DNA of 64,000 nucleotides from Candidatus Omnitrophota bacterium (GCA_903856085.1 CAIOAT010000016.1:8581-72580), one strand, 5' to 3'. Counted from the first letter of the stretch, positions 1 through 26,096 are shown. Program-made: numbers and translations. Notes: a model not told the origin generated them from the sequence alone.

Positions 1-22
1 TCAGCAAGAGAGCTTCGGACAT
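1..22 (-). CDS. 5' end (7 codons, MSEALLL) of the next ABC permease gene, expected to be pstA from gene order; runs off the window
   Basis: ATG at 20-22 (minus) lies 1 nt downstream of the pstC stop codon at 24-26. The canonical order is pstS-pstC-pstA. The fragment is far too short to verify by similarity. Confidence 0.3.
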
Positions 23-23
23 A

Positions 24-965
24 TTACATCCTCAATTTCTGGCGCATTTTATTCAGGACAATCTCGGAAACAAGGTTCAGGACAAACGTAAAAGTAAAAA
101 GCACGGCTCCGACTAGAAAAAGCGCGTAGTAGTGTTCGCTGCCCTGGGCTACGGAACCGAGCTCCGCAGCAATATTGGCGGTCATAGTCCGGACACTTGA
201 AAAAATATTACCTGTTACAAGTGCGGCATTGCCGGTCGCCATAAGCACGATCATCGTTTCCCCGAGCGCTCGCCCGAATCCAAGAATGATCGCCGCCGAG
301 ATCCCCGAAACTGCGGCCGGTACGACCGTTCCCCACACTGTCTGCCACTTCGTGGCACCTAAGGCATACGAGGCGTCCCGCAAGTCTTTGGGTACTGCCC
401 GCATCGCGTCCTCCGCAATGGTAATCATGATCGGCAGAACAGCCAGGGCTACCCCGCAAGCACCGACAAAAGCATTCAAGCGGAACTTGGTATGGAAAGT
501 ATTCTGAATAAAGGTCGCGATAAAAGCCAGCATCACAAATCCGATCACAACCGAGGGGATACCAGCCAAAAGCTCCAGTGTTGGCTTCAGAATTTCACGA
601 ACTTTGGAGGGGGCAAGTTCTGAAAGATAGATTGCACAGCCGAGTCCGAGAACGCCGGCAATGACCGTAGCGGGAAAAGCCACAAGAAGGCTGCCGCAAA
701 TAAGCGGAATGAGGGAATACTTTGGGACTTCGGATATCGATTGCCACATCATCTTGAAAACATAGTGTCCTTCCCAATCGTCGTACACCCATTTCCCAAT
801 CAGGTCAAATGGATTGGCCGTAAAAAAGAACCGCACAGCTTCTTTGAAAAGAAAAACAAAAATCAAGGCCATAATAAGCATCGACGAGATCCCTGCCAAA
901 AGCAAAAGCTTCTGGATCAGCCACTCTGAGAAATTCCCGCTTTTTTTCGTCAGTCGATGTCTCAT
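24..965 (-). CDS. pstC: Phosphate ABC transporter permease PstC
   Basis: 313-aa multi-TM ORF with an ABC-permease EAA-type loop (IAEDAMRAVPKDLRDASYALGATKWQT). It lies directly downstream of pstS on the same strand. Confidence 0.9.
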   Translation of the reverse strand: MRHRLTKKSGNFSEWLIQKLLLLAGISSMLIMALIFVFLFKEAVRFFFTANPFDLIGKWVYDDWEGHYVFKMMWQSISEVPKYSLIPLICGSLLVAFPATVIAGVLGLGCAIYLSELAPSKVREILKPTLELLAGIPSVVIGFVMLAFIATFIQNTFHTKFRLNAFVGACGVALAVLPIMITIAEDAMRAVPKDLRDASYALGATKWQTVWGTVVPAAVSGISAAIILGFGRALGETMIVLMATGNAALVTGNIFSSVRTMTANIAAELGSVAQGSEHYYALFLVGAVLFTFTFVLNLVSEIVLNKMRQKLRM

Positions 966-1048
966 TTTCCCCAGCTCATCTTAAAGGAAACAAGCGCCCC
1001 CAATGCGAGGGCGCCTGTTTCCCTTAATAATTTGGTTTCTTTACGATT

Positions 1049-1924
1049 CTACTTCTTCAGTTTCAATGGAACATACCCGATTTCTTCGACGATCTTCTGA
1101 CCTTCCGGACTCATGATCCAGTCCAGATAAGCTTTGATCTCGCCCTTGGGCTTAAAACCGGTGTACATATACAAATAGCGCCAAATAGGATACGTCCCGC
1201 TCCAGGCTGCTTCATAGTCAAGCGTTCCATCAGCCTTAACCGGGTTGATGGCCGGGGACTTATCATCCCTCTTCACGGAAAGGATCTTCACTCCCGGCTG
1301 CTTAATGTAATAAGCTGCGCCCCCGTAACCAATACCATTGGGATCCTTGGAAACCGCATTGGCAATCGCCGAGGTTCCGGGCATGGTCTGACAATCCGCC
1401 GCATAATCTTTGTTCTTGAGAACTTCTTCTTTGAGGAATGTATAGGTCCCGCTTGACGACTCACGGCAATACCGGAGGATGGGTTGATTGGGCCCGCCAA
1501 TTTCATTCCAGTTATTGATATTACCCATATAGATCCCCTGAATCTGTTTCAAGGAAAGTTCCTTGATAGGATTTGAAGCATTTACCACGATGGCCAAACT
1601 ATCCATCGCGACCTTGAATTCTTCAGGATAGTAACCGGCGGCTTTCGCTTTATCCATCTCGCTGGCCTTGATCTTGCGGCTGGCGTTCGCGATATCGGTA
1701 GTCCCATTGATCAGGGCTGCAATTCCGACACCTGAACCACCTCCGGTCACCTGGATCGCGGCTTCAGGGTGCTTCTGCATGTAGACTTCGGCCCACTTCT
1801 GCCCCATGACCACGATCGTGTCGGAACCCTTGACAGTGATGTTCTTCGCGGCGAAGGCTGACGGAATTATGGCCGCCAAAGCCATCACCAAAACACCCCT
1901 TATAACCCAACGCGTTGTTTTCAT
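1049..1924 (-). CDS. pstS: Phosphate ABC transporter substrate-binding protein PstS
   Basis: PstS-type blocks are present (ITVKGSDTIV, VTGGGSGVGIAALINGTTDIANASR). Signal peptide MKTTRWVIRGVLVMALAAIIPSAFA. SD AAAGGAG lies upstream of ATG 1924. The ORF-track start at 1966 lies upstream of the predicted -10 and adds a non-signal extension. Confidence 0.9.
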   Translation of the reverse strand: MKTTRWVIRGVLVMALAAIIPSAFAAKNITVKGSDTIVVMGQKWAEVYMQKHPEAAIQVTGGGSGVGIAALINGTTDIANASRKIKASEMDKAKAAGYYPEEFKVAMDSLAIVVNASNPIKELSLKQIQGIYMGNINNWNEIGGPNQPILRYCRESSSGTYTFLKEEVLKNKDYAADCQTMPGTSAIANAVSKDPNGIGYGGAAYYIKQPGVKILSVKRDDKSPAINPVKADGTLDYEAAWSGTYPIWRYLYMYTGFKPKGEIKAYLDWIMSPEGQKIVEEIGYVPLKLKK

Positions 1925-1949
1925 TTTAGCTTCTCCTTTTGACGCCTTC

Positions 1950-1994
1950 AGTTTAAATGAAAGCATCCTGGTTAGATGTAAAATTCCTGTAAAC
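1950..1994 (-). promoter_or_regulatory. Pho-box-like direct repeat plus candidate -10 in front of pstS
   Basis: Top strand has TGTAAAA (1977-1983) and TGTAAAC (1988-1994), 11 bp apart. On the gene strand this reads GTTTACA-N4-TTTTACA. A candidate -10, TAAACT (1950-1955), lies 21 nt downstream. The element sits between the porin stop (1997) and pstS. Confidence 0.5.
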
Positions 1995-1996
1995 TC

Positions 1997-3583
1997 TTAG
2001 AACTTATACGTCATATCGAGCTGAAACCGGCGAACCGATTGATCCGTTTGCATACCCGTCGTATAAATGGAGTTTCTCTGAGTGATCGGTCGAACGAGGT
2101 AACACGCGCCATTCACGGTCAGATAATCGGTGAGGTTGTATCCCAACTTGATGACACTGCCATCTTTGTCAGCACCACCATAGTTATACCCGCCAAAGTC
2201 GCTATCATTAAAAGCGCCAGGTACAGAGTTTGCACCGATATACTTGTATTGGTAGCTCGTCTGCCAATCCCCCTTTTTCACGAGCTTCCCGAGCGTGAGA
2301 CCTAGCGACCAGGCATACTCGCCACCCTGCATCGTGTAATTTTGGGCCGCTCCAGTCTGAGCACCAATTCCAGATGTGTTGCTCATATTCCGCGCAAATT
2401 CAGCGAATGGTTTTACGGGAACACCGTAAGGATAGAGATTAACCTCCTGATACAAGCTCAGAACATTAAACTTTCCTGCCGCCAACCTAGATCCGTCAAT
2501 CGGATTTCCATTAGCGAAACTCGTAGCAGGAGTGCTTCCATTATAGGCATTCCAATTGGAGTTCTCGGCGTAATGCTGATAATTGTAAACAGAAAGTGCC
2601 GTAAGCGCATCCACAGGCCTTTCCATTCCGGGAACATAGAAAACGGGATTCAACCCAACTTGATAAGCGAACAGGTTGGCGTCTTTTCCCTGGGAAGGTT
2701 GATTTGCCACGCCATTAGCGGTGGCATAGGTAGCTGTATTCCCATTCTCCTGGAGGATGAATTGGCCCAAGGTAGCGTAGGCTTTAAGATCCAGGTTATC
2801 GGTCTTTAAGAGCCGCGCATCGATCTTTTCATAGGCACCTTCCGGTTTCAGGTCCCGGTCCCAGATCATATCGGTAGAACCTTTTTCGAAAGGATTGTTG
2901 AATTTACCGCCAGTAACCTCCAAACCCGAGACTGCCAAATCCCCGACGGGATTGATCTTGGCCCATTCCGGAGTGTAGGTTGCGTAAGCCTTTTCGATCC
3001 AGATGTTTTTGAAGGTGAAATCATTACCAAGGGTTTGATTCGTAGAGATGGGGTCGGTGTTACCGTTGGCCGAAGTCGAACCGCCGCTGGCCATCGAAAA
3101 ACCGACTTTCATTTCCGGATTGAATGTTTTTTCAAATCCATAGCGCAGGCGGATACGAAACCGGTTTCTGTCCGGCTGGTAAGTATTAACGCCCGCAGGA
3201 GCTGTCGTTCCATTCCAGCGATTACCGGTTAGGCCAAACGCCTCATATCTCAAACGAAGATCTCCGCTGAACTTGAGGTCCTTGAGCCACTTGTTGGCAC
3301 CGCCGGTCGAATCGCTCAAGCGCTGATTGAATTCGGCTTCACTCATCGGAGGAGTTGCTTCCACGCCGCTAGGAGCCACAGCGATCTTCCCGCCGTTACC
3401 TGCCTTGAGCGCCTGGATCTCTGATTTCTGCGCCATGACGGTCGACTGCAGATCGTTCATCTGTTTCTGCATGTTCTTGACCATATCCATGAGCTGCGCT
3501 TCATCCGCGAACGCCGCAGACGAAAAAGTCATAAGGCAAACGACTAAAATGCTCGCCAGTTTTGTGAAAGGGTGGTATTTCAT
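1997..3583 (-). CDS. Outer-membrane beta-barrel porin with N-terminal coiled coil (candidate phosphate-regulon porin)
   Basis: SD GGAGGA precedes ATG 3583. Signal peptide MKYHPFTKLASILVVCLMTFSSAAFA. Heptad-like segment QLMDMVKNMQKQMNDLQSTVMAQKSEIQALKA. About 440 aa of G/Y/N-rich alternating strands follow, ending in ...LDMTYKF (terminal Phe typical of OMPs). The ORF-track start at 3784 is rejected because it has no SD and lies upstream of the predicted promoter. Confidence 0.7.
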   Translation of the reverse strand: MKYHPFTKLASILVVCLMTFSSAAFADEAQLMDMVKNMQKQMNDLQSTVMAQKSEIQALKAGNGGKIAVAPSGVEATPPMSEAEFNQRLSDSTGGANKWLKDLKFSGDLRLRYEAFGLTGNRWNGTTAPAGVNTYQPDRNRFRIRLRYGFEKTFNPEMKVGFSMASGGSTSANGNTDPISTNQTLGNDFTFKNIWIEKAYATYTPEWAKINPVGDLAVSGLEVTGGKFNNPFEKGSTDMIWDRDLKPEGAYEKIDARLLKTDNLDLKAYATLGQFILQENGNTATYATANGVANQPSQGKDANLFAYQVGLNPVFYVPGMERPVDALTALSVYNYQHYAENSNWNAYNGSTPATSFANGNPIDGSRLAAGKFNVLSLYQEVNLYPYGVPVKPFAEFARNMSNTSGIGAQTGAAQNYTMQGGEYAWSLGLTLGKLVKKGDWQTSYQYKYIGANSVPGAFNDSDFGGYNYGGADKDGSVIKLGYNLTDYLTVNGACYLVRPITQRNSIYTTGMQTDQSVRRFQLDMTYKF

Positions 3584-3655
3584 AAGATTGGATCTCCTCC
3601 GGTTGAATGGGAATGGGGCAGAATTCTTTTCTGTCCGTTTGATTTTCATGCCGGA

Positions 3656-3710
3656 AGTATAGAAAACCCGTGTCAGGTCTCCATGATGGAAATGTAAAGA
3701 AATTGTAAGG
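3656..3710 (-). promoter_or_regulatory. Four-half-site Pho-box-like array plus -10 upstream of the porin gene
   Basis: Gene-strand half-sites are CCTTACA (3710-3704), CTTTACA (3699-3693), TCCATCA (3690-3684) and CCTGACA (3677-3671), spaced 11, 9 and 13 bp. A 9-nt gap follows, then TATACT (3661-3656). The array lies about 70 nt upstream of ATG 3583. Confidence 0.55.
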
Positions 3711-3790
3711 AAAAAAGTGACGGCTTTCGGATGGAGCAAGGAACAACTTGCTAACAACCTGCTAGGAGCTAACATTGTGGACAAGATTCA

Positions 3791-3819
3791 GAAAAGCTCC
3801 CCCTCCCTGCAGGAAGAGG
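3791..3819 (-). terminator. Candidate rho-independent terminator after ppk2
   Basis: The minus strand reads CCTCTTCC-TGCA-GGGAGGGG, an 8-bp stem with two G-U pairs, followed by GAGCTTTTC. It lies 100 nt downstream of the ppk2 stop and upstream of the porin promoter array. Confidence 0.4.
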
Positions 3820-3918
3820 ACTGGAATGGAGGCGTGGGATCACCTGAAGACTTCCCATTGGTAGCGCAGTTTCACCTCGACGCAATTACTTAGAGGGGAC
3901 CCCGTTTTTCAGGGCTTC

Positions 3919-4776
3919 TTAGTAAACCGCCTGCACAAATCTCTGTTTGTTGAGAGGCGGGCGTTTGTAACCTTTATCTTTCTGGCGCTTTGGAATGACG
4001 AGTTTCTTTTGGGTCACATCTCTATAGGGGATCTGAGCCAATAGATGTGTCATGCAATTCAGGCGGGAACGTTTTTTGTCGTTCGAGTCCACCACATGCC
4101 AGGGAGAATCCTTGGTGTCCGTATGTTCAAACATGACATCCTTGGCTTTTGAATATTCCACCCAGCGAGCGCGGGCTTCTAAATCCATCGGGCTGAGTTT
4201 CCAGCGCCGGGCGGGATCCTTGAGCCTTTCCTGAAAGCGCGCTTCCTGCACGGCATCGCTGACCGAAAACCAGTATTTAATGAGAATAGTTCCGGAACGG
4301 ATCAGTTCTTTCTCGAATTGCGGGCAAAAATCCAAAAAATCCCGGTACTCCGCATCCGTGCAAAAGCCCATCACGCGTTCGACGCCCGCACGGTTGTACC
4401 AACTGCGATCAAAAAGCACCACCTCCCCGGCGGCCGGCAAATACGCGGCATACCGCTGGAAATACCACTGTGTTTTTTCCCGCTCCGTAGGAGTTCCCAA
4501 CGCCGCGATCCGGACAATGCGCGGGTTCGTGAGTCCCGTTATCCGTTTGATCACGCCCCCCTTACCGGCCGCATCACGCCCCTCAAAAAGCACCACGACC
4601 TTGAGCCCCTTAAACTTGACCCACTCTTCCAATTTGACCATCTCGGTTTGCAGCCGCTCGATTTCCCGGTCGTAAATCTTGTTTTTAAGTTTCTTGGGCA
4701 GGCCGTCGAGCTTTCCGGATTTTTTCTTCAGGATCTTCCTTATTTCTTCTTTCACATGTTGATCCTTCTTGCCCAT
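3919..4776 (-). CDS. ppk2: Polyphosphate kinase 2 (single-domain PPK2)
   Basis: 285 aa with a PPK2 P-loop region (VVLFEGRDAAGKGGVIKRI) and the FDRSWYNRAGVERVMGF block. Confidence 0.9.
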   Translation of the reverse strand: MGKKDQHVKEEIRKILKKKSGKLDGLPKKLKNKIYDREIERLQTEMVKLEEWVKFKGLKVVVLFEGRDAAGKGGVIKRITGLTNPRIVRIAALGTPTEREKTQWYFQRYAAYLPAAGEVVLFDRSWYNRAGVERVMGFCTDAEYRDFLDFCPQFEKELIRSGTILIKYWFSVSDAVQEARFQERLKDPARRWKLSPMDLEARARWVEYSKAKDVMFEHTDTKDSPWHVVDSNDKKRSRLNCMTHLLAQIPYRDVTQKKLVIPKRQKDKGYKRPPLNKQRFVQAVY

Positions 4777-4840
4777 AAGAATCCTCCGATCGTCTAAAGC
4801 CTTTTTACTTCTTTGAATGTTCCTGCCGCAAAACAGAGGT

Positions 4841-5398
4841 TCAGATCTTCACTTCGTTGGGGTAAGCGAGTTTCTTAAGCTCTTCTATCATTTGCTCGAC
4901 ATTTTTTGTTTCAGCGCTATCAGGGCCTATTTTTTTCAGACGAATATTCAGCGCCTTGTTGAGAATATCGATGGCGGCCGTGTATTTTTTTTGCATGGCA
5001 TAAGCAACACCAAGGTTAAAATAAATCGCCGCCATTTCCACGCCTTCTTTGTCCAACTTTTTAAGATCGATCAGGACAGCCAGCTTGTAGAGCTGCTCGG
5101 CTTCCGACGCACGCTTCAGGTACAAATAAAGATTTGCCAGATTATTCATGGTATCTGCGGCTTCCAGGCTGTCTTTCCCGTACTCCTCTTTCGCCACCTG
5201 AACGGCTTTTTCTGCGGCTTGAAGCGCTGCCGGCAAGTCCCTCGCTTCATTTGCGGCAACGAGCTGATCGTTCAAAGCTTGTATCTTTGCCGCACCTGCA
5301 CTGTGATCCTTCGCGAGCACAGGCTCCGCCTGCGCAGTAAGACAGATGAGAGCACTCAGAGTAAGCATTGAAATATAGCGGCATTTTTTCATCATCAT
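4841..5398 (-). CDS. Secreted tetratricopeptide-repeat protein
   Basis: Signal peptide MKKCRYISMLTLSALICLTAQA. TPR-like 34-aa repeats are present (ADTMNNLANLYLYLKRASEAEQLY; AAIYFNLGVAYAMQKKYTAAIDIL). SD GGAG lies upstream of a triple ATG (5392/5395/5398). Confidence 0.7.
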   Translation of the reverse strand: MMMKKCRYISMLTLSALICLTAQAEPVLAKDHSAGAAKIQALNDQLVAANEARDLPAALQAAEKAVQVAKEEYGKDSLEAADTMNNLANLYLYLKRASEAEQLYKLAVLIDLKKLDKEGVEMAAIYFNLGVAYAMQKKYTAAIDILNKALNIRLKKIGPDSAETKNVEQMIEELKKLAYPNEVKI

Positions 5399-5497
5399 TT
5401 TAAATCTCCGGATTCCTGAAACTATTTCTCTCCTTAAGACGCAGGATTGTAGTCCTTTGGAAAGCGGAAATCAAATCTTCCGAAGCTTTCTGATAGT

Positions 5498-5537
5498 TTT
5501 TACACATATTTATCATCACCGTCATGGGGTATTTACA
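5498..5537 (+). promoter_or_regulatory. Pho-box-like array on the plus strand (four half-sites)
   Basis: Half-sites are TTTTACA (5498-5504), TTTATCA (5509-5515), ACCGTCA (5518-5524) and ATTTACA (5531-5537). The 11/9/13 spacing is identical to the porin array. It lies 60-100 nt upstream of small ORF 5599 and in the upstream region of the divergent TPR-ppk2 unit. Confidence 0.45.
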
Positions 5538-5598
5538 TAGAAATGCGAGACTTGGGTCAGAATAAAGAATAAAACAAGCTTGCGAAAGGGGATCAACC

Positions 5599-5832
5599 AT
5601 GATCAGCCAATTAGACTGCCTCGAAGACTTGATGGATTGGAATTCTTGCACCGAAATCAAATCGGCGCCTACCGCACGCGTGGGAAAGAGTTTTTTCCCT
5701 GTTTTTATGATCGAGTCCGCAACGACATCACCGGCCGGCAAAGAAATGGACTCGTGGCTTATCCGGTCCGGGCTTTCTCCCCAAGCAAGCCTTGCCTTCA
5801 GCCGGATCGGGATCTACACGGATTTTTCTTAG
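5599..5832 (+). CDS. Orphan small ORF (77 aa), hypothetical
   Basis: ATG is preceded by GAAAGGGGA (SD-like, 7-nt spacer) and sits downstream of the plus-strand Pho-box-like array. I recognise no family. It is the only plausible plus-strand gene in the first 26 kb. Confidence 0.3.
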   Translation: MISQLDCLEDLMDWNSCTEIKSAPTARVGKSFFPVFMIESATTSPAGKEMDSWLIRSGLSPQASLAFSRIGIYTDFS

Positions 5833-5901
5833 CCCTAATCCAAAAAGATCGCGAATCTTGCCTCTTATTTTGAACTTCACGGAACGTTCGGGGATCTGTG
5901 A

Positions 5902-6717
5902 TCAAGAGACGGGAACAAACTGGGCCTGAGCGGCTTCCCAGAGCTGACGGGCCAGATCTTTCCGCTGACCCGCTCTTATCGGCCTGTCGCCAAAAACAAA
6001 ACGCGCCTTGAAGGTCCTCATCCGAAGCAGGTCCTTCAAGTGCGGCATGAATTCCATATCGCCCCACCAGCAAACAGACCGGCTGGCCGGGGTTTCTTCC
6101 CGGGGCGTTCGATAGAAGATCGTAACAAAATGGACAGGATAGAGCCTGTCGGCGGCCGATCTAAAAAGCGCCGCATTAAAAGGAAGGATCCCGCTTCCTG
6201 CGCTGCTGGTTCCTTCCGGAAAAAACAAGACACCTTTCCGTCCCTCGAACGCCTCTTCGATCTCCCGGTTGACGCGGATCGCATCCCGGGCATTGTCCCG
6301 GTCCACAAAGATACAATCGAAAGCTTTGATCACGCTTCCAAGAAAAGGCCATTCCTCGACTTCCCTTTTTGCAATAAAAACAGCGTCAAGCTGGGTCGCT
6401 AGGGCGATGATATCGACATAGCTTAGATGATTGCTAATAATAACATAGGGGGACTCCGGCGGCGTCCCGCGAACAGTGATGCGCATTCCAAGCACGGCAG
6501 CTGAGGCACGGGCCCAGAATCTGAAAACGATCTTCCTCCAGCGCCAGCCGGCCGCAGGAAGAAGGAACCTTCTGAAAAAAATAAGAAGGTAGGTCAATAC
6601 AAGCACCGAAAAAATCAAAAAGATGCGGACCCGGGCTCGGATCGAACCCCGGAGGCTCTCTACGAAACCGGCTATTTCAGTTATGAAAGAAGTCAAAGGT
6701 CTTTTCATCGAGATCAT
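5902..6717 (-). CDS. Lysophospholipid/lyso-aminolipid O-acyltransferase (PlsC/LPLAT family, OlsA-like)
   Basis: HX4D motif NHLSYVDI, FPEGTSS block and an N-terminal TM helix. The start is uncertain (ATG 6717 or 6708). Either start overlaps the 3' end of the upstream N-acyltransferase gene. Confidence 0.8.
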   Translation of the reverse strand: MISMKRPLTSFITEIAGFVESLRGSIRARVRIFLIFSVLVLTYLLIFFRRFLLPAAGWRWRKIVFRFWARASAAVLGMRITVRGTPPESPYVIISNHLSYVDIIALATQLDAVFIAKREVEEWPFLGSVIKAFDCIFVDRDNARDAIRVNREIEEAFEGRKGVLFFPEGTSSAGSGILPFNAALFRSAADRLYPVHFVTIFYRTPREETPASRSVCWWGDMEFMPHLKDLLRMRTFKARFVFGDRPIRAGQRKDLARQLWEAAQAQFVPVS

Positions 6718-7474
6718 CAATGTCGAGAAGTGTAAGAAAATCAATAGTGCCGAACGCGCGGTCCACGGCAGGTTCACTGCAGATCCGCGCCCCAAAATTC
6801 AGATAGGCCTTCAGCAAGCGAGGGATCGTCTTTTTTTTCAAGGGATACGGTGCCTCGAGAGGCTCCCCACATTCAAAATCAGGACAAACGCCAAGAAAAA
6901 TCTCCGGATGCAAATAGCCATGGGTGGATAAATAATCAAACGCATGCCAACCCTCACGGGGGTCCTGTTCCGTCAAAGAGGTGCAGCCGAAGAGGTACCG
7001 CTTCCCTTTCATCTCGAGATATTTCACAAGCCCCTTCCACAAGAGGAAAAGAACTTTGACGTTCCGATGCTCCTTTGCAATGCACGCGCGACCGATCTCG
7101 ATCCCGTTCTTCAAGTATGCGTTCGGGAACCTAGTAAAATCGAATTCCGCGGCAGAATAAAAACCAATATTCGCCTGCGCCATTTCGAAGGTTTGAAGAC
7201 GATAGGTCCCGACGGGCACCCCCGTCCTGTTCTCGCAGATAACAAGATGATCGCAATAGCGGTCAAAACCATCCTCGTCCTTACCGGACAAGTGCGACCG
7301 GAGAAGTCCCTCCTGCAGCTCCAGGTTAAAAACCCGATATCTTAAGCGGAGTACAGCATCCAGATCCGGTGAATCCCCTTTGAGAAAACGAATGTGGAAC
7401 CCTTTGTCCGGAGGAGCAGAGACAAGGTCCGAACGGACCTCCTGGCTTGCGCCTTTTTCCTGAACGGCGCTCAT
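6677..7474 (-). CDS. GNAT-type N-acyltransferase of the OlsB/hemolysin-like family (aminolipid synthesis)
   Basis: Blocks LRLRYRVFNLELQEG, FDRYCDHLVI and IGRACIAKEHR are typical of the Acetyltransf_5/OlsB family. ATG 7474 overlaps the PHP gene stop (ATGA). Confidence 0.75.
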   Translation of the reverse strand: MSAVQEKGASQEVRSDLVSAPPDKGFHIRFLKGDSPDLDAVLRLRYRVFNLELQEGLLRSHLSGKDEDGFDRYCDHLVICENRTGVPVGTYRLQTFEMAQANIGFYSAAEFDFTRFPNAYLKNGIEIGRACIAKEHRNVKVLFLLWKGLVKYLEMKGKRYLFGCTSLTEQDPREGWHAFDYLSTHGYLHPEIFLGVCPDFECGEPLEAPYPLKKKTIPRLLKAYLNFGARICSEPAVDRAFGTIDFLTLLDIDDLDEKTFDFFHN

Positions 7475-9231
7475 AAGCACCTCACCACAGATGGATTTTC
7501 AAAAAGTTCATTCCGCCGCTTAAAAAGAATCTTTTCTTGAGACTCATCCCCGCGATACTCCCCATCTGCGAGGTTGCAGAGATACTTCAGATATTTTTCA
7601 ACAGCCTCAAAAGTACCGTCTTCGGTATCGGGGAGATCGGCGCGGGAAACTTCCGGAGAAAACGTCACAAGACATTTGACATCCAGCATACGGGCCGCAA
7701 TAAACCCAAGCAATCCGATCGGCCCCGGCGTATCGATCACGATACGATCGGGATTCCATTTCTCGATCACCGAGAGCGCCCCGAGAACCGATGGAATCCT
7801 GAGCGAGAAACAACCGAAAAATCGTCTTCGAAGGAGCCCGATCATCGGCAGGTCGAGCGCCCCGGAACAACCCAGCGGCCTTCGCGGACGGGAACAGACA
7901 GCCACTCTGACAGACTGACCTCTGGCGAGGTTCCGCTTGGAGCGGAATTCTTCGAGATCCCTCAGCGACCTTACGGCATCCGAGAACCAGAGACTCCTTT
8001 CCGGGATTTTCGCCGACCTGGCCGGACATTCTTCATGGAACTCAAGGTCTTCCAACAGCCTCTTGTTATGGTTCAACAAACGGAGTGCAGCAAAGAACGG
8101 CGCACCGAGGAATGTGGTCGCAATAATGCCTTTTTTCAGCCAGCGGGCCTTTCCGGCACGCCCCTGCTTCGGCCCAAGAGCCTGGATCATGTTCCGGACG
8201 ATCTCATCGAGCAATATTGTCAGTTGTTTGTAAACAAGATCGATCCTCTGGACGGAGGAGAGGGAGCTATTCGAGGCATACCCTCGGAAAATACCAGAAA
8301 AGAATTTCCCGAGAACCTTATGAAAATTCCGTGGACTTCGTACAAGAAAAAATGAGAGGACGCGAAGTAATCCACCGTGGGATTTATTCCCCCGAAGCAT
8401 CCCGCCAATTTCGCGGGAGATGAACGCGGGGCTCTTTTTCCCAGCGAGATCACCATAAACGTGCCCCCCGATCAAGATAAAGCTCAAAGCCATGGACTTA
8501 TAATCGTGGTTACGGCCAAACCCGAATGTCTTTTTATCACGAAGAGATTGCAGAAAATCTTGCTTTGTCCTGCCAGAGGCCACCGTGAAGGTATCCCCGA
8601 TAAAAAGACCAGCATGATCATCCGACCCGCCTGTCAGTCCCTTAATCCAGCTGTCTTCCGAGAAAGGTTCGATCCGATGCTTGGCATGCAACCGTTCGAT
8701 ATCTTCGTGGGTCAAATGCTCGATGGCCTCGGTCCATTCCTGGTTATGACGGGTGGCATGAGCACCGTTCACACTTTCAAAAACATCGAAAAGCAAAATA
8801 AGCTTTTCAAGGCCGTCGCGATCAATCTTGCGATTCACGCTGAGCGTTGCGTGAGCAACCGAATAGGCGAGCCTTTCTGCACGGATATAATCCCTGAAAG
8901 CATAAATGTTCGAACGGAGCCCCAGGAGCTTCGCGAACTGTTTTTCTGTAAGATCGAAAACAAGGATGTGAACCTTGCAATGGTTCTCCGGGAAAACAAC
9001 CGAAAACTCACAACTAACAAAGGCTTCGGCGGGATACTTGTGGGCCAGACGGAGCGCTCCCTCAATAGAATTGTGGTCGGTCACCGTAACAAAATCCATT
9101 TTCTTGAATTTTGCAACGCGATAAATATGCTCGAGCTCCGTATAGGATTCACGGACCCCGAGCGCTTTCAACGTCCACTCATCTCCATCCAGAGAATACT
9201 TCGAATGCAAATGCAGATCGGCTCTAGCCAT
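7471..9231 (-). CDS. PHP-domain metal-dependent phosphoesterase fused to the N-terminal half of a GT-B (GT4-like) fold
   Basis: PHP motifs: DLHLHSKYSLDG, VTDHNSIEG, GGSDDHAG. The C-terminal ~170 aa resemble a GT4 N-domain (VRVAVCS..., PDRIVIDTPGPIGLLGFIAARML) with no C-half. ATG 9231 has SD GGAAAGGAA. The track start at 9255 is a TTG. Confidence 0.7.
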   Translation of the reverse strand: MARADLHLHSKYSLDGDEWTLKALGVRESYTELEHIYRVAKFKKMDFVTVTDHNSIEGALRLAHKYPAEAFVSCEFSVVFPENHCKVHILVFDLTEKQFAKLLGLRSNIYAFRDYIRAERLAYSVAHATLSVNRKIDRDGLEKLILLFDVFESVNGAHATRHNQEWTEAIEHLTHEDIERLHAKHRIEPFSEDSWIKGLTGGSDDHAGLFIGDTFTVASGRTKQDFLQSLRDKKTFGFGRNHDYKSMALSFILIGGHVYGDLAGKKSPAFISREIGGMLRGNKSHGGLLRVLSFFLVRSPRNFHKVLGKFFSGIFRGYASNSSLSSVQRIDLVYKQLTILLDEIVRNMIQALGPKQGRAGKARWLKKGIIATTFLGAPFFAALRLLNHNKRLLEDLEFHEECPARSAKIPERSLWFSDAVRSLRDLEEFRSKRNLARGQSVRVAVCSRPRRPLGCSGALDLPMIGLLRRRFFGCFSLRIPSVLGALSVIEKWNPDRIVIDTPGPIGLLGFIAARMLDVKCLVTFSPEVSRADLPDTEDGTFEAVEKYLKYLCNLADGEYRGDESQEKILFKRRNELFENPSVVRCL

Positions 9232-9385
9232 AAATGATTCCTTTCCTGGACTCAAGATCTACCCAGAATCATTATCGACGATCAACATGATGGGAGTGTT
9301 TGGCGGAGGAAAATTCCGTGTAAAATCATTTTGAAACGACGTAATCAGCTCTGGGGAAACAGGTTAAAGAAACCCTGCCGAACGC

Positions 9386-11455
9386 TCACTGCAGATTTTT
9401 ATTGGCCTTGGGACGCTGAGGCTTGAGATCAAGGGGAAGCTGTTTGTCATGCAAAGCTTCGTTCTCAAGCGCTTTTTGGCAAAGGTACTCTTGAACACGG
9501 AATTTCTTTTCGCCCGCAGGATCCTTTTTTTGATAGGTCCCATCGGGAGAAAGCCCCCAAGCCTTCTGGTTATCCTTGAAATAATGATGGAGGAGCTGAA
9601 TGAGTTCTTTTTTGTTTTTTCTATCCTCCACAGGAAACATGAGCTCAAGACGCTTATCAAAATTCCTCGGCATCCAATCTGCGCTGGAAAGATAAACTTC
9701 GTCGTCCCCTGCGTTCGAAAAATAAAAAATCCGACTGTGTTCCAGGAACATATCGACAATACTCACCACCTCGATATTTTCACTCAGGCCTTTGACTCCT
9801 GGCCGGAGGCAACAGATCCCGCGAACATTCAGTTTTATCTGAACCCCTTTTTGCGAAGCGCGATAGAGAGCATCAATGATCTCCTTATCCACCAAAGAGT
9901 TCATCTTCGCAATTATGAGGCCGGAGCGTTCGGGGGAACTCTGCGCAGACTCCCGAAAGATCAACCGTAAAAGCTTCCGGCGTAACCCATAGGGTGCCAT
10001 TTCGAGCTTGGAAAAATGACCGGGGCTTGAGAACCCCGTCATGAGATTGAAGAAGGAACTGACATCCGCGGCAAACTCATCATGACTCGTAAAAAGATTA
10101 AGGTCCGAATAGATCTGAGCGGTTTTTTCATTGTAATTCCCGGTTCCAAGATGCAGATACCGCTTGATCCCTGCGGCTTCACGACGAACAACCAAGCAAA
10201 CTTTGGAATGTGTTTTCAGACCAACCACCCCATAAAGGATCGTAGCCCCCGCTCTCTCCAAACGTTTGGCCTCTTCGATATTCCGCTCTTCATCAAAGCG
10301 CGCCTTCAGCTCAACTAAGACGGTAACCTGTTTTCCCTTTTCCACTGCTTTTTCAAGAGCATTAATGACCGGCGAATGATTCCCAGTCCTGTAAAGCGTC
10401 TGTTTGATAGCTAAAACATCCGGATCTTCTGCGGCAGTCGAAACAAACCGAAGAAAAGCACTGAAAGAATCGTAGGGATAATGCACCAACAGATCTTTTT
10501 CCCTGAGCAATCCCCAAAGGTCACCGGCTTCCGTCATTTCCAGAACGGGTCGCGGTATCCATGCGAGCCGCTTGAACCTTTCGAACCCGGGCTGGAATGC
10601 TAGCTGAGAAATGCTTTTAAGATCAAGCCATCCCTCACTTTTAAAGATCTCATGTCCCTCAATGCCCATTTTCTGTTTCAAATGGTCGATCATGTCATCG
10701 GACGCATCGATCTCAAGACGCACGACCCGGCTTTCCTTTCTAGACCGCAGAGCCTCACTCATAAGTTTTGCTAGGTCTTCGTCCTTTTCTTCATCGATCG
10801 TAAATTCCGCGCAACGCGTCACCCTAAGGGACCCCTGACGCCCGATCATAAACCCGAGAAAAAGCTCCTGCGCAAAAAGACCGATCACGTCTTCGATCAG
10901 AATGAACGCATGGCTAGATTCCGAGGGAAGCATGATCATGCGCGGACAATTTTTAGGGATCTCAACCAAGGCGTAACGTGCGGCTGCGAGATTGGTGGAT
11001 TCTGTGAGTTCAAAAATACGGTAAAGACTCAGGTTTGCGAGGCTCGGGAAAGGCTGTTCTTCATGAACCGCGAGCGGTGTGAGGAGCGGCAAGAACTCCG
11101 TCAAAAAAAGGTTTTTAATGAACAGGAACTGTTTCTCGTTCAGGGCTTGCGGAAGGACTCGCACAATACCGTCCCCTTCCATTTCATGGACAAGAAGTTC
11201 CTTGAAATAAAGCTGCTGCTTATGGATCAAGGAAGACGCCTGCTGATAGATCTCCAGCAGAAGTGGGTCTGTTTCAGGGACGCTGGCAACGCGAACCATA
11301 AAAAATTCGTCGAAATTGGAGCTGACGATCCCGACAAACTTCAAGCGCTCCAGAACAGGATTCGAGATATCCATTGCCTCTGCCAGAACGCGGGCATTGA
11401 ACCGAATCCATGATAATTCCCGATCAAAATATTTTTCTTGAGGGATATTTTCCAT
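9386..11455 (-). CDS. ppk: Polyphosphate kinase 1
   Basis: 689 aa with a PPK1 N-terminus (YFDRELSWIRFNARVLAEA) and the conserved blocks GLKTHSKVCLVVRRE and FLEHSRIFYF. Confidence 0.95.
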   Translation of the reverse strand: MENIPQEKYFDRELSWIRFNARVLAEAMDISNPVLERLKFVGIVSSNFDEFFMVRVASVPETDPLLLEIYQQASSLIHKQQLYFKELLVHEMEGDGIVRVLPQALNEKQFLFIKNLFLTEFLPLLTPLAVHEEQPFPSLANLSLYRIFELTESTNLAAARYALVEIPKNCPRMIMLPSESSHAFILIEDVIGLFAQELFLGFMIGRQGSLRVTRCAEFTIDEEKDEDLAKLMSEALRSRKESRVVRLEIDASDDMIDHLKQKMGIEGHEIFKSEGWLDLKSISQLAFQPGFERFKRLAWIPRPVLEMTEAGDLWGLLREKDLLVHYPYDSFSAFLRFVSTAAEDPDVLAIKQTLYRTGNHSPVINALEKAVEKGKQVTVLVELKARFDEERNIEEAKRLERAGATILYGVVGLKTHSKVCLVVRREAAGIKRYLHLGTGNYNEKTAQIYSDLNLFTSHDEFAADVSSFFNLMTGFSSPGHFSKLEMAPYGLRRKLLRLIFRESAQSSPERSGLIIAKMNSLVDKEIIDALYRASQKGVQIKLNVRGICCLRPGVKGLSENIEVVSIVDMFLEHSRIFYFSNAGDDEVYLSSADWMPRNFDKRLELMFPVEDRKNKKELIQLLHHYFKDNQKAWGLSPDGTYQKKDPAGEKKFRVQEYLCQKALENEALHDKQLPLDLKPQRPKANKNLQ

Positions 11456-11467
11456 AGTTTTGAAACT

Positions 11468-13030
11468 CTAAAGCGACGGGCCCGCGCCTTGCTTCAGATC
11501 GAGGGGTGCTCCAAAAACATCGGCGAACATGTCCCCTTTCCGTCGCAGGCTTTCCCGTTCAAGCGAAATATCCCCGATCTCTTTCGGCACCCAGATCGCA
11601 TAAGTGTCTTCCGAACGTTCCAGAGTAAACGACCGGATCTTCTGCTGGTGGCCGGTGTCCAAAGCGTCTGCAATGCGCAGGATGGAAGCAAGTTTTGAGA
11701 CGATTGCCCGGTCCGATTTCGCAAGAGACATGTAAGGTACGTGCGTTTCGCGCGGCGGCACACGGCGATGATACCGGACAACATTAGCGACAATATTCTT
11801 GTCGGTCCTCCTCAGCCCGAAGATCTCGGCGGCATCCACTAAATAATACGAATGCTTGTGGTGTCCCGAAGGAGAAACGTAGGTTCCAATATCATGTAAG
11901 ATACCGGAAACCTCGAGCAAAAGACGCTCGCGGGACCCCATGCCATGATCTCCCGCAAGCAGGTCATAAAGTTTCAATGAGAGTGAGGCCACGCAAACCG
12001 CATGCCCCTTGTCGTACATATATTTTGCCCCAAGGTGGTGGGCGGAATTAAGGACCTGCTTCGAGACGTCCGTTCTTCGGTAACCCGAAAAAAGCTGGGC
12101 CATTTCGAGCAAAAGACCGTCCCGAATACTTAATTTTGGGATAATGACCTCCTCCGCCTTGGTTTCATTTAAAAAATTCAAATAAAAAAGAAGCGCGGGG
12201 TAAAGGGACTCCGCATGCCCATAATCGAGAGAGTATTGCGCGGCAATCTCTTCGGGCGTCATTTTCCCCACCCGCCCCATAAAACTCACAAATTCTTTCT
12301 TTTCAAGAATGGTGAAACGGTCGAGAGTCTCCGGAAGAAGCTGCTGCGATACGAATCGCATATCTCCACCCAGAGCAACGAACGTATCGATCTGCTCCAT
12401 ACGAACTTCACGCGCCACGTTCTGTGCGATATCCCGGATACTCTTCTTCAGAACACGCTGTATGAGTCCCGCATCTTCTTTCCCGGCTACGGCCTGCTCG
12501 GGAAGCCTTACTGATCCTATCGGCAGGGTCCGCGTAACGCTCACCCGACCTTGATCCATGATGATCATTTCCGTACTGCCAGAGCCTACTTCGACGATCA
12601 GGCAATTCTTTTTTTCGAGATCGATCCTCCCCTCCAGCGCATGCTCGACCGCGATCAATTCGAGACGGTTTTCTTCCGGGCCCTCCAAGATCTCCACTTC
12701 GATGCCAGCGCGCACATAGATTTGATCGATGAAATTATCCCGATTCTGGGCCTCCCGGACAGCGCTCGTGGCGATCGCTTGGACTTTTTTGATTCCATAC
12801 GTATCGATCACAGACTTGAAGTCTCGGAGAATGTTCACACCCTGGCGCATGGAAGCACTGCTCAACCTGCCCGTTTTAAAAACATCTTTGCCGAAACGAA
12901 CCGGCTTTTGAAGCTGCTCCAAATAACGAATCTCGTTTTTGGCTCCAACCTCCGCAATCACCATGCGGATTGCAATGGTTCCGATGTCAATAACGGCGGC
13001 GATATGTTTTTGAATTTCTTGTTCAGGCAT
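11468..13030 (-). CDS. ppx: Exopolyphosphatase (Ppx/GppA family) with C-terminal HD domain
   Basis: ASKHA-fold motifs AAVIDIGTIAIRMVIAEV and VEVGSGSTEMI. The C-terminal HD region is ILHDIGTYVSPSGHHKHSYY. It lies 12 nt upstream of ppk1. Confidence 0.9.
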   Translation of the reverse strand: MPEQEIQKHIAAVIDIGTIAIRMVIAEVGAKNEIRYLEQLQKPVRFGKDVFKTGRLSSASMRQGVNILRDFKSVIDTYGIKKVQAIATSAVREAQNRDNFIDQIYVRAGIEVEILEGPEENRLELIAVEHALEGRIDLEKKNCLIVEVGSGSTEMIIMDQGRVSVTRTLPIGSVRLPEQAVAGKEDAGLIQRVLKKSIRDIAQNVAREVRMEQIDTFVALGGDMRFVSQQLLPETLDRFTILEKKEFVSFMGRVGKMTPEEIAAQYSLDYGHAESLYPALLFYLNFLNETKAEEVIIPKLSIRDGLLLEMAQLFSGYRRTDVSKQVLNSAHHLGAKYMYDKGHAVCVASLSLKLYDLLAGDHGMGSRERLLLEVSGILHDIGTYVSPSGHHKHSYYLVDAAEIFGLRRTDKNIVANVVRYHRRVPPRETHVPYMSLAKSDRAIVSKLASILRIADALDTGHQQKIRSFTLERSEDTYAIWVPKEIGDISLERESLRRKGDMFADVFGAPLDLKQGAGPSL

Positions 13031-13038
13031 GCTGTTCC

Positions 13039-14031
13039 CTACTTTTTGGCCGCTTTAAAAACTTCATGGGCCATTTTGGCGGCTCCTAAAATAACCGCAT
13101 TATCCTTCAGTTTGGACGGGACGATTTTCACCACTTTGGCGAGGGGCTTAAGCGCGTAAGCTTCCATCTCACGTCTGACCTCAGGAAGAATGATCTTTCC
13201 CATCGCCTCCATCATTCCTCCTCCCAAGAGGATCAATTCCGGATTCAAAATGTTCACCACATTCGCTAGCGCAACCCCGAGCCACCGGGAACGGCTCCGG
13301 ATCAGCTCCTCTAACGCGATATCCCCCGCTTTGATAGCGCGGGACAAAGCACCGCTGCGGATTTTTTTTACGTTATAACCGATCTCTTCGAGAAGATGCG
13401 GGCACTTCTGCCGCAGCAAGAGGAACCCCGCCTCCGATGCAATAGCATTCCTGCCGACCAAAGCTCCGACTTTTTGGCGCGACGTTTCAAAATCAGAAAA
13501 AGAAGGAAGTGACAGAAATGTCTGGCCGATCTCACCAGCTCCTCCAGAAGCGCCACGGTAAAGATGTCCGTTGATGATGAGCGCCCCGCCGATACCCGTT
13601 CCTAGGAAAACCCCCACGACTTCCCGATAACCCCGCGCTGCGCCGAATTGCTGTTCTCCGAAAAGCCCCGCATTGGCATCGTTTTCAATAAAGACCGGTG
13701 TTTTCAGCTTCGCTTTCAGTTTTTCAGCAAGTGAATAATTCTTAAAAAAAGATACGTTGGAGGAGACTTTGACGATCCCTTTATAGATATCAATGATTCC
13801 AGGACAACCCACACCGATGGTTACAAGATCACTCAGGTCCGACCCGGTTTCTTCCAGAACTTCCTCGATCCCGTCAATGAGCTTGTTGAAAAAGAACCTC
13901 TCGCCGCGATTACCGTCCATCTCAAGTTTGACGGTCTTTTTTAAACTAAATTTCCTGTCAAAAAGACCTATCAGAATCTTGGTCCCGCCCAGATCGATGC
14001 CAAGGATGAACTTCTTTTTCTTGCCCGCCAT
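13039..14031 (-). CDS. ROK-family sugar kinase lacking the zinc CxCGxxGC motif (candidate glucokinase, possibly polyphosphate-dependent)
   Basis: Motifs GIDLGGTKILIG, ENDANAGLFGE and GTGIGGALIING. The only cysteines are in GVGCPG and RQKCPH, so the usual ROK zinc motif is absent. SD GGGGAGAG precedes ATG 14031. The track start at 14061 falls inside the predicted -10. Confidence 0.75.
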   Translation of the reverse strand: MAGKKKKFILGIDLGGTKILIGLFDRKFSLKKTVKLEMDGNRGERFFFNKLIDGIEEVLEETGSDLSDLVTIGVGCPGIIDIYKGIVKVSSNVSFFKNYSLAEKLKAKLKTPVFIENDANAGLFGEQQFGAARGYREVVGVFLGTGIGGALIINGHLYRGASGGAGEIGQTFLSLPSFSDFETSRQKVGALVGRNAIASEAGFLLLRQKCPHLLEEIGYNVKKIRSGALSRAIKAGDIALEELIRSRSRWLGVALANVVNILNPELILLGGGMMEAMGKIILPEVRREMEAYALKPLAKVVKIVPSKLKDNAVILGAAKMAHEVFKAAKK

Positions 14032-14059
14032 AGACTCTCCCCTTTCAAAATTGATTTCC

Positions 14060-14103
14060 ATTATAATGGCTCAGGGAAGTTTTTATGTAAAGCATTTGTA
14101 AAG
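14060..14103 (-). promoter_or_regulatory. Pho-box-like repeat plus consensus -10 for the ROK-ppx-ppk1 operon
   Basis: Top strand has TGTAAAG (14086-14092) and TGTAAAG (14097-14103), exactly 11 bp apart. On the gene strand this reads CTTTACA-AATG-CTTTACA. TATAAT (14065-14060) lies 20 nt downstream, and ATG 14031 follows about 29 nt later. Confidence 0.6.
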
Positions 14104-14279
14104 TCTTGGTGGCTCTATCCATTCAGACCACCTAAAAAGCCCTTCCAGAAATTCCGTAGAGAAATCCACAGGCCCCTATCTTCACACAAAACACAGGGTA
14201 TTCCTCGCGATCTTTTAACGCAAACAAGCCATCACATAAACCTCTGTGCGAATGAACACGTTTTTCACAGGAACTGTTT

Positions 14280-25985: not shown

Positions 25986-26096
25986 TTTTTGCCCTTTTCC
26001 AATGGTGGAAGACAACTCTTTAAGGTTTTATAAAAGTTTTTCCTTCTGATCTCACGGAAAGCTTAACTTCGTTGTGAAAACTCTGCATCACATCCC

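Follow-up and report, generated by a model that had tools for sequence, protein, structure and literature searches.

A truncated PHP-glycosyltransferase relative coupled to ornithine-lipid-type acyltransferase genes in an Omnitrophota phosphate island: a candidate membrane-lipid phosphoesterase

The genome of Candidatus Omnitrophota bacterium GCA_903856085.1 carries, on a 64,000-nt stretch of CAIOAT010000016.1 (8581-72580, hereafter called the window), three tightly packed genes that we refer to as the trio. They encode a protein with an N-terminal PHP phosphoesterase domain, an OlsB-like protein and an OlsA-like protein, all on the minus strand. Positions are given in window coordinates, and the minus-strand genes were read directly in the sequence. 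The PHP gene (7471..9231, 586 aa) runs from ATG 9231 to TGA 7473..7471; this start was chosen because the homologues all begin MAR(A)DLH, which rules out the extension to TTG 9255 made by the open reading frame (ORF) caller. The olsB-like gene (6677..7474, 265 aa) starts with ATG 7474..7472 and ends with TGA 6679..6677. Two in-frame ATGs, at 6717 and 6708, are available to the olsA-like ORF (5902..6708, 268 aa), and 6708 is the most likely start because it yields a 268-aa product, the length that gene callers give in relatives.

The stop of the PHP gene and the start of the olsB-like gene overlap by 4 nt (ATGA, 7471..7474), with the Shine-Dalgarno-like sequence GGTGAGGTG (7486..7478) before the olsB-like start, and the olsB-like and olsA-like genes overlap by 32 nt (6677..6708), or by 41 nt if ATG 6717 is used. 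An earlier, sequence-only reading of this DNA had pointed to both overlaps, putting the second at about 30-40 nt, and both are seen in the sequence. A 4-nt ATGA is the commonest gene overlap in bacteria and is unremarkable taken alone. In the clade of ~80% identity, however, the ATGA and the Shine-Dalgarno-like motif are identical in all five loci (the window, L001, L007, L008 and L009), while synonymous sites in these orthologues are ~50-60% diverged, a conservation beyond the ordinary. The 32-nt overlap is kept in relatives at 79% and 48-49% identity. At the PHP/olsB junction, the 48-49%-identity clade has a 58-nt spacer with its own GGAGG and no overlap.

Upstream of the PHP gene we identified a conserved 20-nt box, GATTTTACACGGAATTTTCC (9308..9327, minus strand), a candidate regulator site made up of two ATTTTMC half-sites 12 nt apart. 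It is present in all five aligned Omnitrophota loci, including the 48-49%-identity clade, and occurs once within the window; its half-site pattern is no more frequent there than in shuffled sequence. Also conserved in this five-locus alignment, in both clades, is a candidate -10-like hexamer, GATAAT (9271..9276, minus strand), within a conserved CGATAAT 40 nt 5' of the start codon. Together the box and the hexamer argue for a separate promoter of the trio. A simple sigma-70 promoter scan did not call GATAAT, the promoter and terminator scan gave nothing above background, and an Rfam scan of window positions 1-15000 returned no match. The alignments support the conclusion that the PHP, olsB-like and olsA-like genes form a unit that is conserved along with an upstream region of its own. 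The three-gene unit of the sequence-only reading thus holds up in relatives, but its fixed stoichiometry does not: overlap does not imply it, and the claim is weakened because the PHP/olsB overlap is absent from the 48-49%-identity clade.

The PHP domain itself (residues 1-243; 8503..9231, minus strand) has an intact set of metal ligands, namely D5, H7, H9, D52, H53, E75, H88, H127, D204 and H206 (HxH, DH, E, H, H, DxH), which are invariant or at least 90% conserved in an alignment of 80 homologues. The Pfam match to PF02811 (PHP) is below the gathering score (23 bits, E 1.1e-4, against 26.4), and precomputed PF02811 matches are present on some close homologues. A PDB sequence search found no match at E <= 1, and it was a fold search that placed the domain among the distorted (beta/alpha)7 PHP barrels, using an AlphaFold2 model with a predicted local distance difference test score of 81.7 and a predicted TM-score of 0.81. 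The nearest solved folds, at 13-19% identity, are RNase AM, BAD_1165, Cv1693, TM0559, PsfC and EndoQ. Neither Pfam nor NCBIfam gave a Metallophos (PlcP-type) signature; therefore, if this is a lipid phosphoesterase, it would be non-orthologous to PlcP, as had been anticipated.

The PHP domain is followed by an all-helical, family-specific region (residues 244-394; 8050..8502, minus strand; delimited from the secondary structure of the model), in which alignments show Y334, D342, F374, P378 and F379 to be conserved. It includes a hydrophobic helix with basic flanks, GIIATTFLGAPFFAALRLL (residues 365-386; 8074..8139, minus strand), a candidate membrane anchor. Its Kyte-Doolittle hydropathy is 1.66 over 19 residues, the longer helix around it (358-387) carries a net charge of +6, and an equivalent segment occurs in all 15 aligned relatives. 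These properties suggest membrane association of the PHP protein. The remainder (residues 410-555; 7567..8004, minus strand) is the N-terminal Rossmann half of a GT-B enzyme of glycosyltransferase (GT) family 4 (GT4). The alignment shows that the GT4 motifs LWFSD and TPGPxGLLG are kept and that YHTDF and the whole donor-binding half are lost, and the protein ends at about residue 586, right after the GT N-domain. Consistent with this, Pfam found no Glycos_transf_1 in the window's PHP protein. The label "PHP phosphoesterase" given to the gene at first therefore needs replacing: the protein is a truncated relative of a PHP-GT4 fusion, without the donor-binding half.

Two explanations for the half domain were rejected. 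A split gene with the C-half encoded nearby is ruled out for the window by tblastn with GT C-halves, which found nothing. A decaying or pseudogene remnant is ruled out by the gapless conserved length of 586 aa in all five clade members and by the ratio of nonsynonymous to synonymous substitution (dN/dS) of 0.10-0.23 in the GT remnant, compared with 0.05-0.09 in the PHP domain, 0.09-0.15 in the linker and ~0.1 over the whole gene. The GT remnant is under purifying selection.

Relatives of the protein were found in at least 444 species-level genomes. The closest loci are in Omnitrophota metagenome-assembled genomes (MAGs), at 80-82% identity. Homologues with E values down to 1e-110 align over 88-99% of the window protein. 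With proteins of ~770-906 aa it is collinear along 88-98% of its length (34-41% identity, E 1e-106 to 1e-118), and a typical member of ~820 aa consists of PHP, the helical linker and a complete GT4 (Glyco_transf_4 plus Glycos_transf_1). Among the 150 best representatives of the family, roughly one in three is a short form of 565-660 aa, and a neighbour-joining tree places the short forms in two or more separate clades. The ~820-aa PHP-GT4 protein is probably the ancestral and still widespread form, and the Omnitrophota lineage would have lost the sugar-donor half. A literature search for a PHP-glycosyltransferase fusion or a lipid-active PHP enzyme yielded nothing except the supplementary annotation of one protein, Dde_3613 of Desulfovibrio alaskensis G20, which is called an "Agt homolog" in the text and annotated as a PHP N-terminal region plus GT group 1 (PMC5193443). 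A mutant in this gene lacks all glycolipids (monoglycosyldiacylglycerol, MGDG, and glycuronic acid diacylglycerol, GADG), retains more of its phospholipid, and has a fitness defect that is confined to phosphate limitation; the PHP domain is neither mentioned nor tested in that study (PMC5193443).

For the GT region of full-length relatives, and for the stand-alone GT4s that follow some truncated genes, the best curated matches are lipid-acceptor GT4s (GpgS, MGlcDAG synthase and IagA/BgsA), all below threshold (85-272 bits against cutoffs of 400-480). Weak NCBIfam matches also include MshA, sucrose-phosphate synthase and lipopolysaccharide and exopolysaccharide GT4 families. The MshA and sucrose-phosphate synthase matches would fit a full-length family that makes a soluble glycoside, with the GT4 forming a sugar-phosphate glycoside that the PHP domain dephosphorylates (compare sucrose-phosphate synthase and its phosphatase, or MshA and a phosphatase), and what remains in the window protein would be a phosphatase that has taken on a new role or has none. 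We consider this very improbable, given the Pho-regulon and membrane-lipid context described below, the conserved hydrophobic helix, the purifying selection on short forms that have no donor half, and the glycolipid phenotype in G20 (PMC5193443).

The two downstream genes are related to those of ornithine-lipid synthesis. The OlsB-like protein matches Pfam Acetyltransf_5 (94.5 bits against 22.4, E 7e-27); its best NCBIfam match is a full-length one to OlsB (121.6 bits against 350), the second scores 119.6 against 320, and the GlsB (glycine) model gave no match at E <= 0.01. The OlsA-like protein matches Pfam Acyltransferase (80.2 bits against 23, E 1.6e-22), and its best NCBIfam match is to OlsA, again full length (141.5 bits against 300; second 137.7 against 300). 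The HX4D (NHLSYVD) and FPEGT (FFPEGT) motifs can be read in its translation. Because the scores are far below the equivalog cutoffs, the head-group amino acid is not assignable. We know of no lipid data for Omnitrophota.

The trio sits in the middle of a contiguous island for phosphate acquisition and polyphosphate metabolism, identified with Pfam at window positions 24-14061 on the minus strand. In transcriptional order the genes are a giant ORF, ROK, PPX, PPK1, PHP, olsB, olsA, TPR, PPK2, Porin_5, PstS and PstC. Upstream of the trio are a ROK kinase (13039..14061), possibly a polyphosphate-dependent sugar kinase, Ppx/GppA (11468..13030) and PPK1 (9386..11455); downstream are a TPR protein (4841..5398), PPK2 (3919..4776), Porin_5 (1997..3784), PstS (1049..1966) and PstC (24..965), all on the minus strand. 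The same order is found in relatives at 79% and 48% identity, where the island runs on into PstA/PstB. The trio is putatively regulated by phosphate. The giant ORF (3911 aa, 14280-26015, minus strand) lies directly upstream of the ROK gene, and the P0006 contig has a 3836-aa counterpart at this position with no Pfam match on record. Between the olsA-like stop and the TPR gene is a 503-nt gap (5399-5901) with no Rfam match and no convincing terminator; in one relative, two small opposite-strand ORFs (77 and 80 aa) were called in the gap.

For a wider view of the gene's neighbourhood, ORFs were called in the loci of 82 relatives and neighbours within 6 kb were clustered. Pho or polyphosphate genes (Pst/PhoU/PhoA/PPK/PPX) are present in 29 of the 82 loci and lipid or GT genes in 31; one or the other type occurs in 50. 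The phosphate-related neighbours comprise a PstB-like ABC ATPase (12 loci), PPK1 (9), PstS (8), PPX (8), PstC/A (7), PhoU (7) and PhoA (6). PAS/CBS sensor kinases are found in 22 loci. One truncated form (P0100) directly follows Porin_5-PstSCAB/PhoU, and the Desulfobacula toluolica copy is near PstB-PhoU.

The polyphosphate genes invite the explanation that the PHP protein is a polyphosphate enzyme, a polyphosphatase or granule phosphatase acting with PPK1, PPX, ROK and PPK2, and that its link to olsBA is incidental. PPK1, PPX and ROK adjoin the gene not only in the window but in 8-9 of the 82 loci, across several phyla, and in L003 a CHAD-domain gene is directly upstream. Most family members, however, lack polyphosphate genes in their vicinity, the island already has a dedicated PPX, and the GT4 fusion and the recurrent GT, ols and bta-like neighbours would be left unexplained, which makes this role improbable.

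Among lipid-related neighbours are an MJ1255/VC2487-type GT (16 loci, in 12 of them directly downstream), OlsA-like (8 loci) and OlsB-like (6 loci) proteins, and Psd (5 loci). The olsBA pair adjoins full-length PHP-GT4 genes in Denitrovibrio and Deferribacterales (L073, L079 and L081), and an OlsF-like gene is near a Lentisphaerae copy (L049). The association with olsBA arose independently in several lineages. The sequence-only reading had put forward co-occurrence of PHP and olsB across genomes as a check. Omnitrophota conserve the association, and Deferribacterota and Lentisphaerota show it again, though it is not a general trait of the family. Two truncated genes (L051 and L056) are followed by a stand-alone GT4 that is a complete enzyme rather than the missing half.

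A further possibility is that PHP-GT4 proteins modify some other phosphorylated envelope molecule, such as a lipid A precursor or a polyprenyl-phosphate-linked intermediate, and not bulk phospholipids. GT4 enzymes have many envelope acceptors, those of lipopolysaccharide and exopolysaccharide synthesis are among the weak matches noted above, and replacement of lipid A phosphates by sugars is known from other bacteria. Nevertheless, relatives occur in MAGs labelled Thermotogaceae and Eubacteriales, groups that to our knowledge mostly lack lipid A, and the genes found nearby are those of glycerolipids and aminolipids. The G20 mutant, moreover, specifically loses MGDG and GADG (PMC5193443), and we judge an envelope substrate of this kind to be quite improbable.

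Several other recurrent neighbours were recorded. Two truncated genes stand beside radical-SAM/SPASM, MJ1255-type GT, methyltransferase and DUF3419 genes (L004:10005-14278 and L087:10117-16612), with GH2 in addition in L087. The DUF3419 and methyltransferase genes resemble BtaA/BtaB of betaine-lipid synthesis, a candidate assignment for which NCBIfam gave no confirming match. Parts of this set (radical-SAM/SPASM with an MJ1255-type GT and/or GH2) recur in L043 and L080 and in two Moduliflexus MAGs, L023 and L024. Radical-SAM genes are present in 12 loci, and in 8, including Denitrovibrio, Desulfobacula and Omnitrophota, such a gene is immediately downstream of PHP-GT4 (e.g., L031:8334-9611); its weak NCBIfam matches include the tetraether lipid synthase Tes. 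DksA was found in 11 loci. In 9, all of them Desulfobacterales-type or unclassified-proteobacterial MAGs, the DksA-like gene is two genes downstream of PHP-GT4 (e.g., L005:11555-11968), which suggests a regulatory link to the stringent response or starvation. Finally, a protein of ~573 aa with no Pfam or NCBIfam match occurs in seven loci (L040:12442-14163, L013, L015, L052, L055, L068 and L074), in five of them directly downstream of PHP-GT4; the labels of these MAGs include Victivallales, Lentisphaerales, Fibrobacterota and Spirochaetes.

Overall, the comparative context supports a tie between the PHP protein's family and both phosphate starvation and phosphorus-free lipid synthesis, in several phyla. 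A Pho-island setting would be expected equally if the PHP domain were a scavenging esterase for soluble substrates (pAp, nucleoside diphosphates, short RNAs, or UDP from the fused GT), with olsBA merely in the same regulon, and SurE nucleotidase or RNase II-type genes are indeed near in a few loci. Several features make this unlikely: the permanent fusion to a lipid-type GT4, or to its acceptor-side half, in hundreds of lineages; the family-specific helical linker and hydrophobic helix; and an identity to nucleotide enzymes of only 13-19%. Furthermore, purifying selection maintains the GT N-half even in the short forms, which cannot produce UDP.

We interpret the trio as a phosphate-starvation membrane-remodelling operon in which the PHP protein acts on a lipid phosphoester, and we put the probability of this at about one half. 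From acyl-ACPs (acyl carrier protein thioesters), the OlsB-like and OlsA-like enzymes would assemble an acyloxyacyl amino-lipid that contains no phosphorus, either ornithine lipid or a closely similar compound. The PHP protein would be a multi-metal phosphoesterase, probably located at the cytoplasmic face of the inner membrane and held there by the conserved hydrophobic helix and the acceptor-side half of a lipid glycosyltransferase. Its putative substrate is a lipid: the PHP domain may hydrolyse the phosphoester of a glycerophospholipid or a precursor, either in the manner of a phospholipase C (PLC) or as a phosphatidate or lyso-lipid phosphatase, with phosphate released and a lipid of the diacylglycerol type as the remaining product. 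The fused GT4 of the ~820-aa form would convert this product to a glycolipid, making that form a single-protein counterpart of PlcP and Agt. The lineage of the window would have lost the sugar-donor half, and its phosphoesterase module would have become coupled to aminolipid synthesis instead. The pairing with a pathway independent of diacylglycerol suggests that the main benefit is recovery of phosphate, not supply of substrate.

Various observations weigh against this interpretation. We know of no lipid-hydrolysing enzyme in the PHP family, and the closest solved PHP structures have nucleotides or nucleic acids as substrates. As a membrane segment the hydrophobic helix is borderline, and it could instead lie in the protein interior. 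Ornithine-lipid synthesis uses no diacylglycerol, the surroundings of the operon showed no enzyme that would consume it, and the search of the window found no GT C-half, so the fate of the proposed product is unexplained. The OlsB-like and OlsA-like scores are well short of equivalog membership in NCBIfam. No Pho-box-like motif common to the trio promoter and the other island promoters was found. Conservation of the link to ppk1/ppx/ROK in Omnitrophota-type lineages equals or exceeds that of the link to olsBA, and L003 has CHAD and ROK-PPX-PPK1 without olsBA. The genetic support is indirect, as Dde_3613 is connected to the family by annotation only. In addition, the G20 metallophosphoesterase Dde_3469 shows a mild fitness defect in one phosphate-starvation condition (PMC5193443, Table 1), and could be a PlcP-type enzyme that coexists with the PHP-GT protein.

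With these points on the other side of the balance, the suggestion of a PlcP-like role made from the sequence alone is partly supported: it appears strengthened by the comparative evidence and, indirectly, by the G20 genetics. More broadly, and tentatively, with the odds somewhat against it, we propose that the PHP domain represents a new class of membrane-lipid phosphoesterase (phospholipase C or phosphatidate phosphatase), a portable module paired by fusion or in an operon with the phosphorus-free lipid pathway of each lineage, be it for glycolipid, aminolipid or betaine lipid. As such it might provide the step of starvation-induced remodelling that releases phosphate and forms diacylglycerol in many anaerobic and uncultured lineages, among them Desulfobacterota, Omnitrophota, Lentisphaerota, Spirochaetota and Deferribacterota. 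The PHP module is kept through fusion, truncation and swapping of partners, and is therefore the common element.

A major way in which microbes respond to scarce phosphate is to exchange phospholipids for lipids that contain no phosphorus, and geochemists use this exchange as a sign that phosphate is limiting. The enzyme to which the release of phosphate is assigned is PlcP, mainly in Proteobacteria and Flavobacteria that live aerobically. The literature that we searched identifies no enzyme for removal of the head-group phosphate in sulfate reducers or in many candidate phyla. The trio draws attention to a hitherto unstudied family of enzymes that may take phosphate off membrane lipids during phosphate shortage. 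If this is correct, it would add a new catalytic activity to the PHP superfamily, give a reason for the PHP domain on the G20 "Agt", and provide a gene by which lipid remodelling under phosphate stress could be traced in anoxic environments. The Omnitrophota form, truncated and coupled to olsBA, would then demonstrate that the esterase module does not depend on glycolipid synthesis for its function.

Comparison with known systems brings out which parts of the trio are familiar. The small PHP phosphoesterases (RNase AM/TrpH, BAD_1165, the pAp phosphatase Cv1693, TM0559 and PsfC) share the fold and the metal-ligand pattern with the window protein. They differ in sequence (13-19% identity), lack the helical linker, hydrophobic helix and GT domain, and act on nucleotides or RNA or have no established function. 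Lipid-acceptor GT4s (the GlcNAc-PG synthase GpgS, PMC12713373; Mgs; IagA/BgsA) are the best curated matches to the GT part of relatives, but at scores far below cutoff, and the window protein keeps only the N-terminal Rossmann half. The OlsB/OlsA systems of ornithine-lipid synthesis (Sinorhizobium, Rhodobacter and Brucella NCBIfam models) provide the best full-length matches for both downstream genes, and the succession of an N-acyltransferase and an HX4D O-acyltransferase is the same, with the genes here adjacent and overlapping; the difference lies in the scores, 121.6 and 141.5 bits against cutoffs of 350 and 300. Dde_3613 has the same annotated PHP plus GT architecture as the family, a membership that rests on annotation and not alignment, and has a complete GT, whereas the window protein lacks the donor half.

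The closest functional parallel is with PlcP and Agt. PlcP is a calcineurin-type metallophosphoesterase, whereas the window protein is a PHP barrel with no Metallophos match, and PLC activity has been demonstrated for PlcP, whereas for the PHP-GT4 family it is proposed from context. PlcP neighbourhoods are of several types, with agt, other GTs or btaBA (PMC4796936). As in the PlcP-Agt pair of Sinorhizobium, Phaeobacter and SAR11 (PMC4796936), a phosphoesterase gene is coupled to genes for phosphorus-free lipids in a phosphate-starvation context, and the neighbours include a GT4-type glycolipid synthase and other GTs; the betaine-lipid counterpart is here unconfirmed by NCBIfam. Agt is a GT4 MGDG/GADG synthase, and the window protein is without the donor-binding half of such an enzyme. 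In the PHP-GT4 family, the esterase is fused to a GT, or to half of one, instead of being separately encoded, and in the window its partner is an aminolipid pathway that needs no diacylglycerol.

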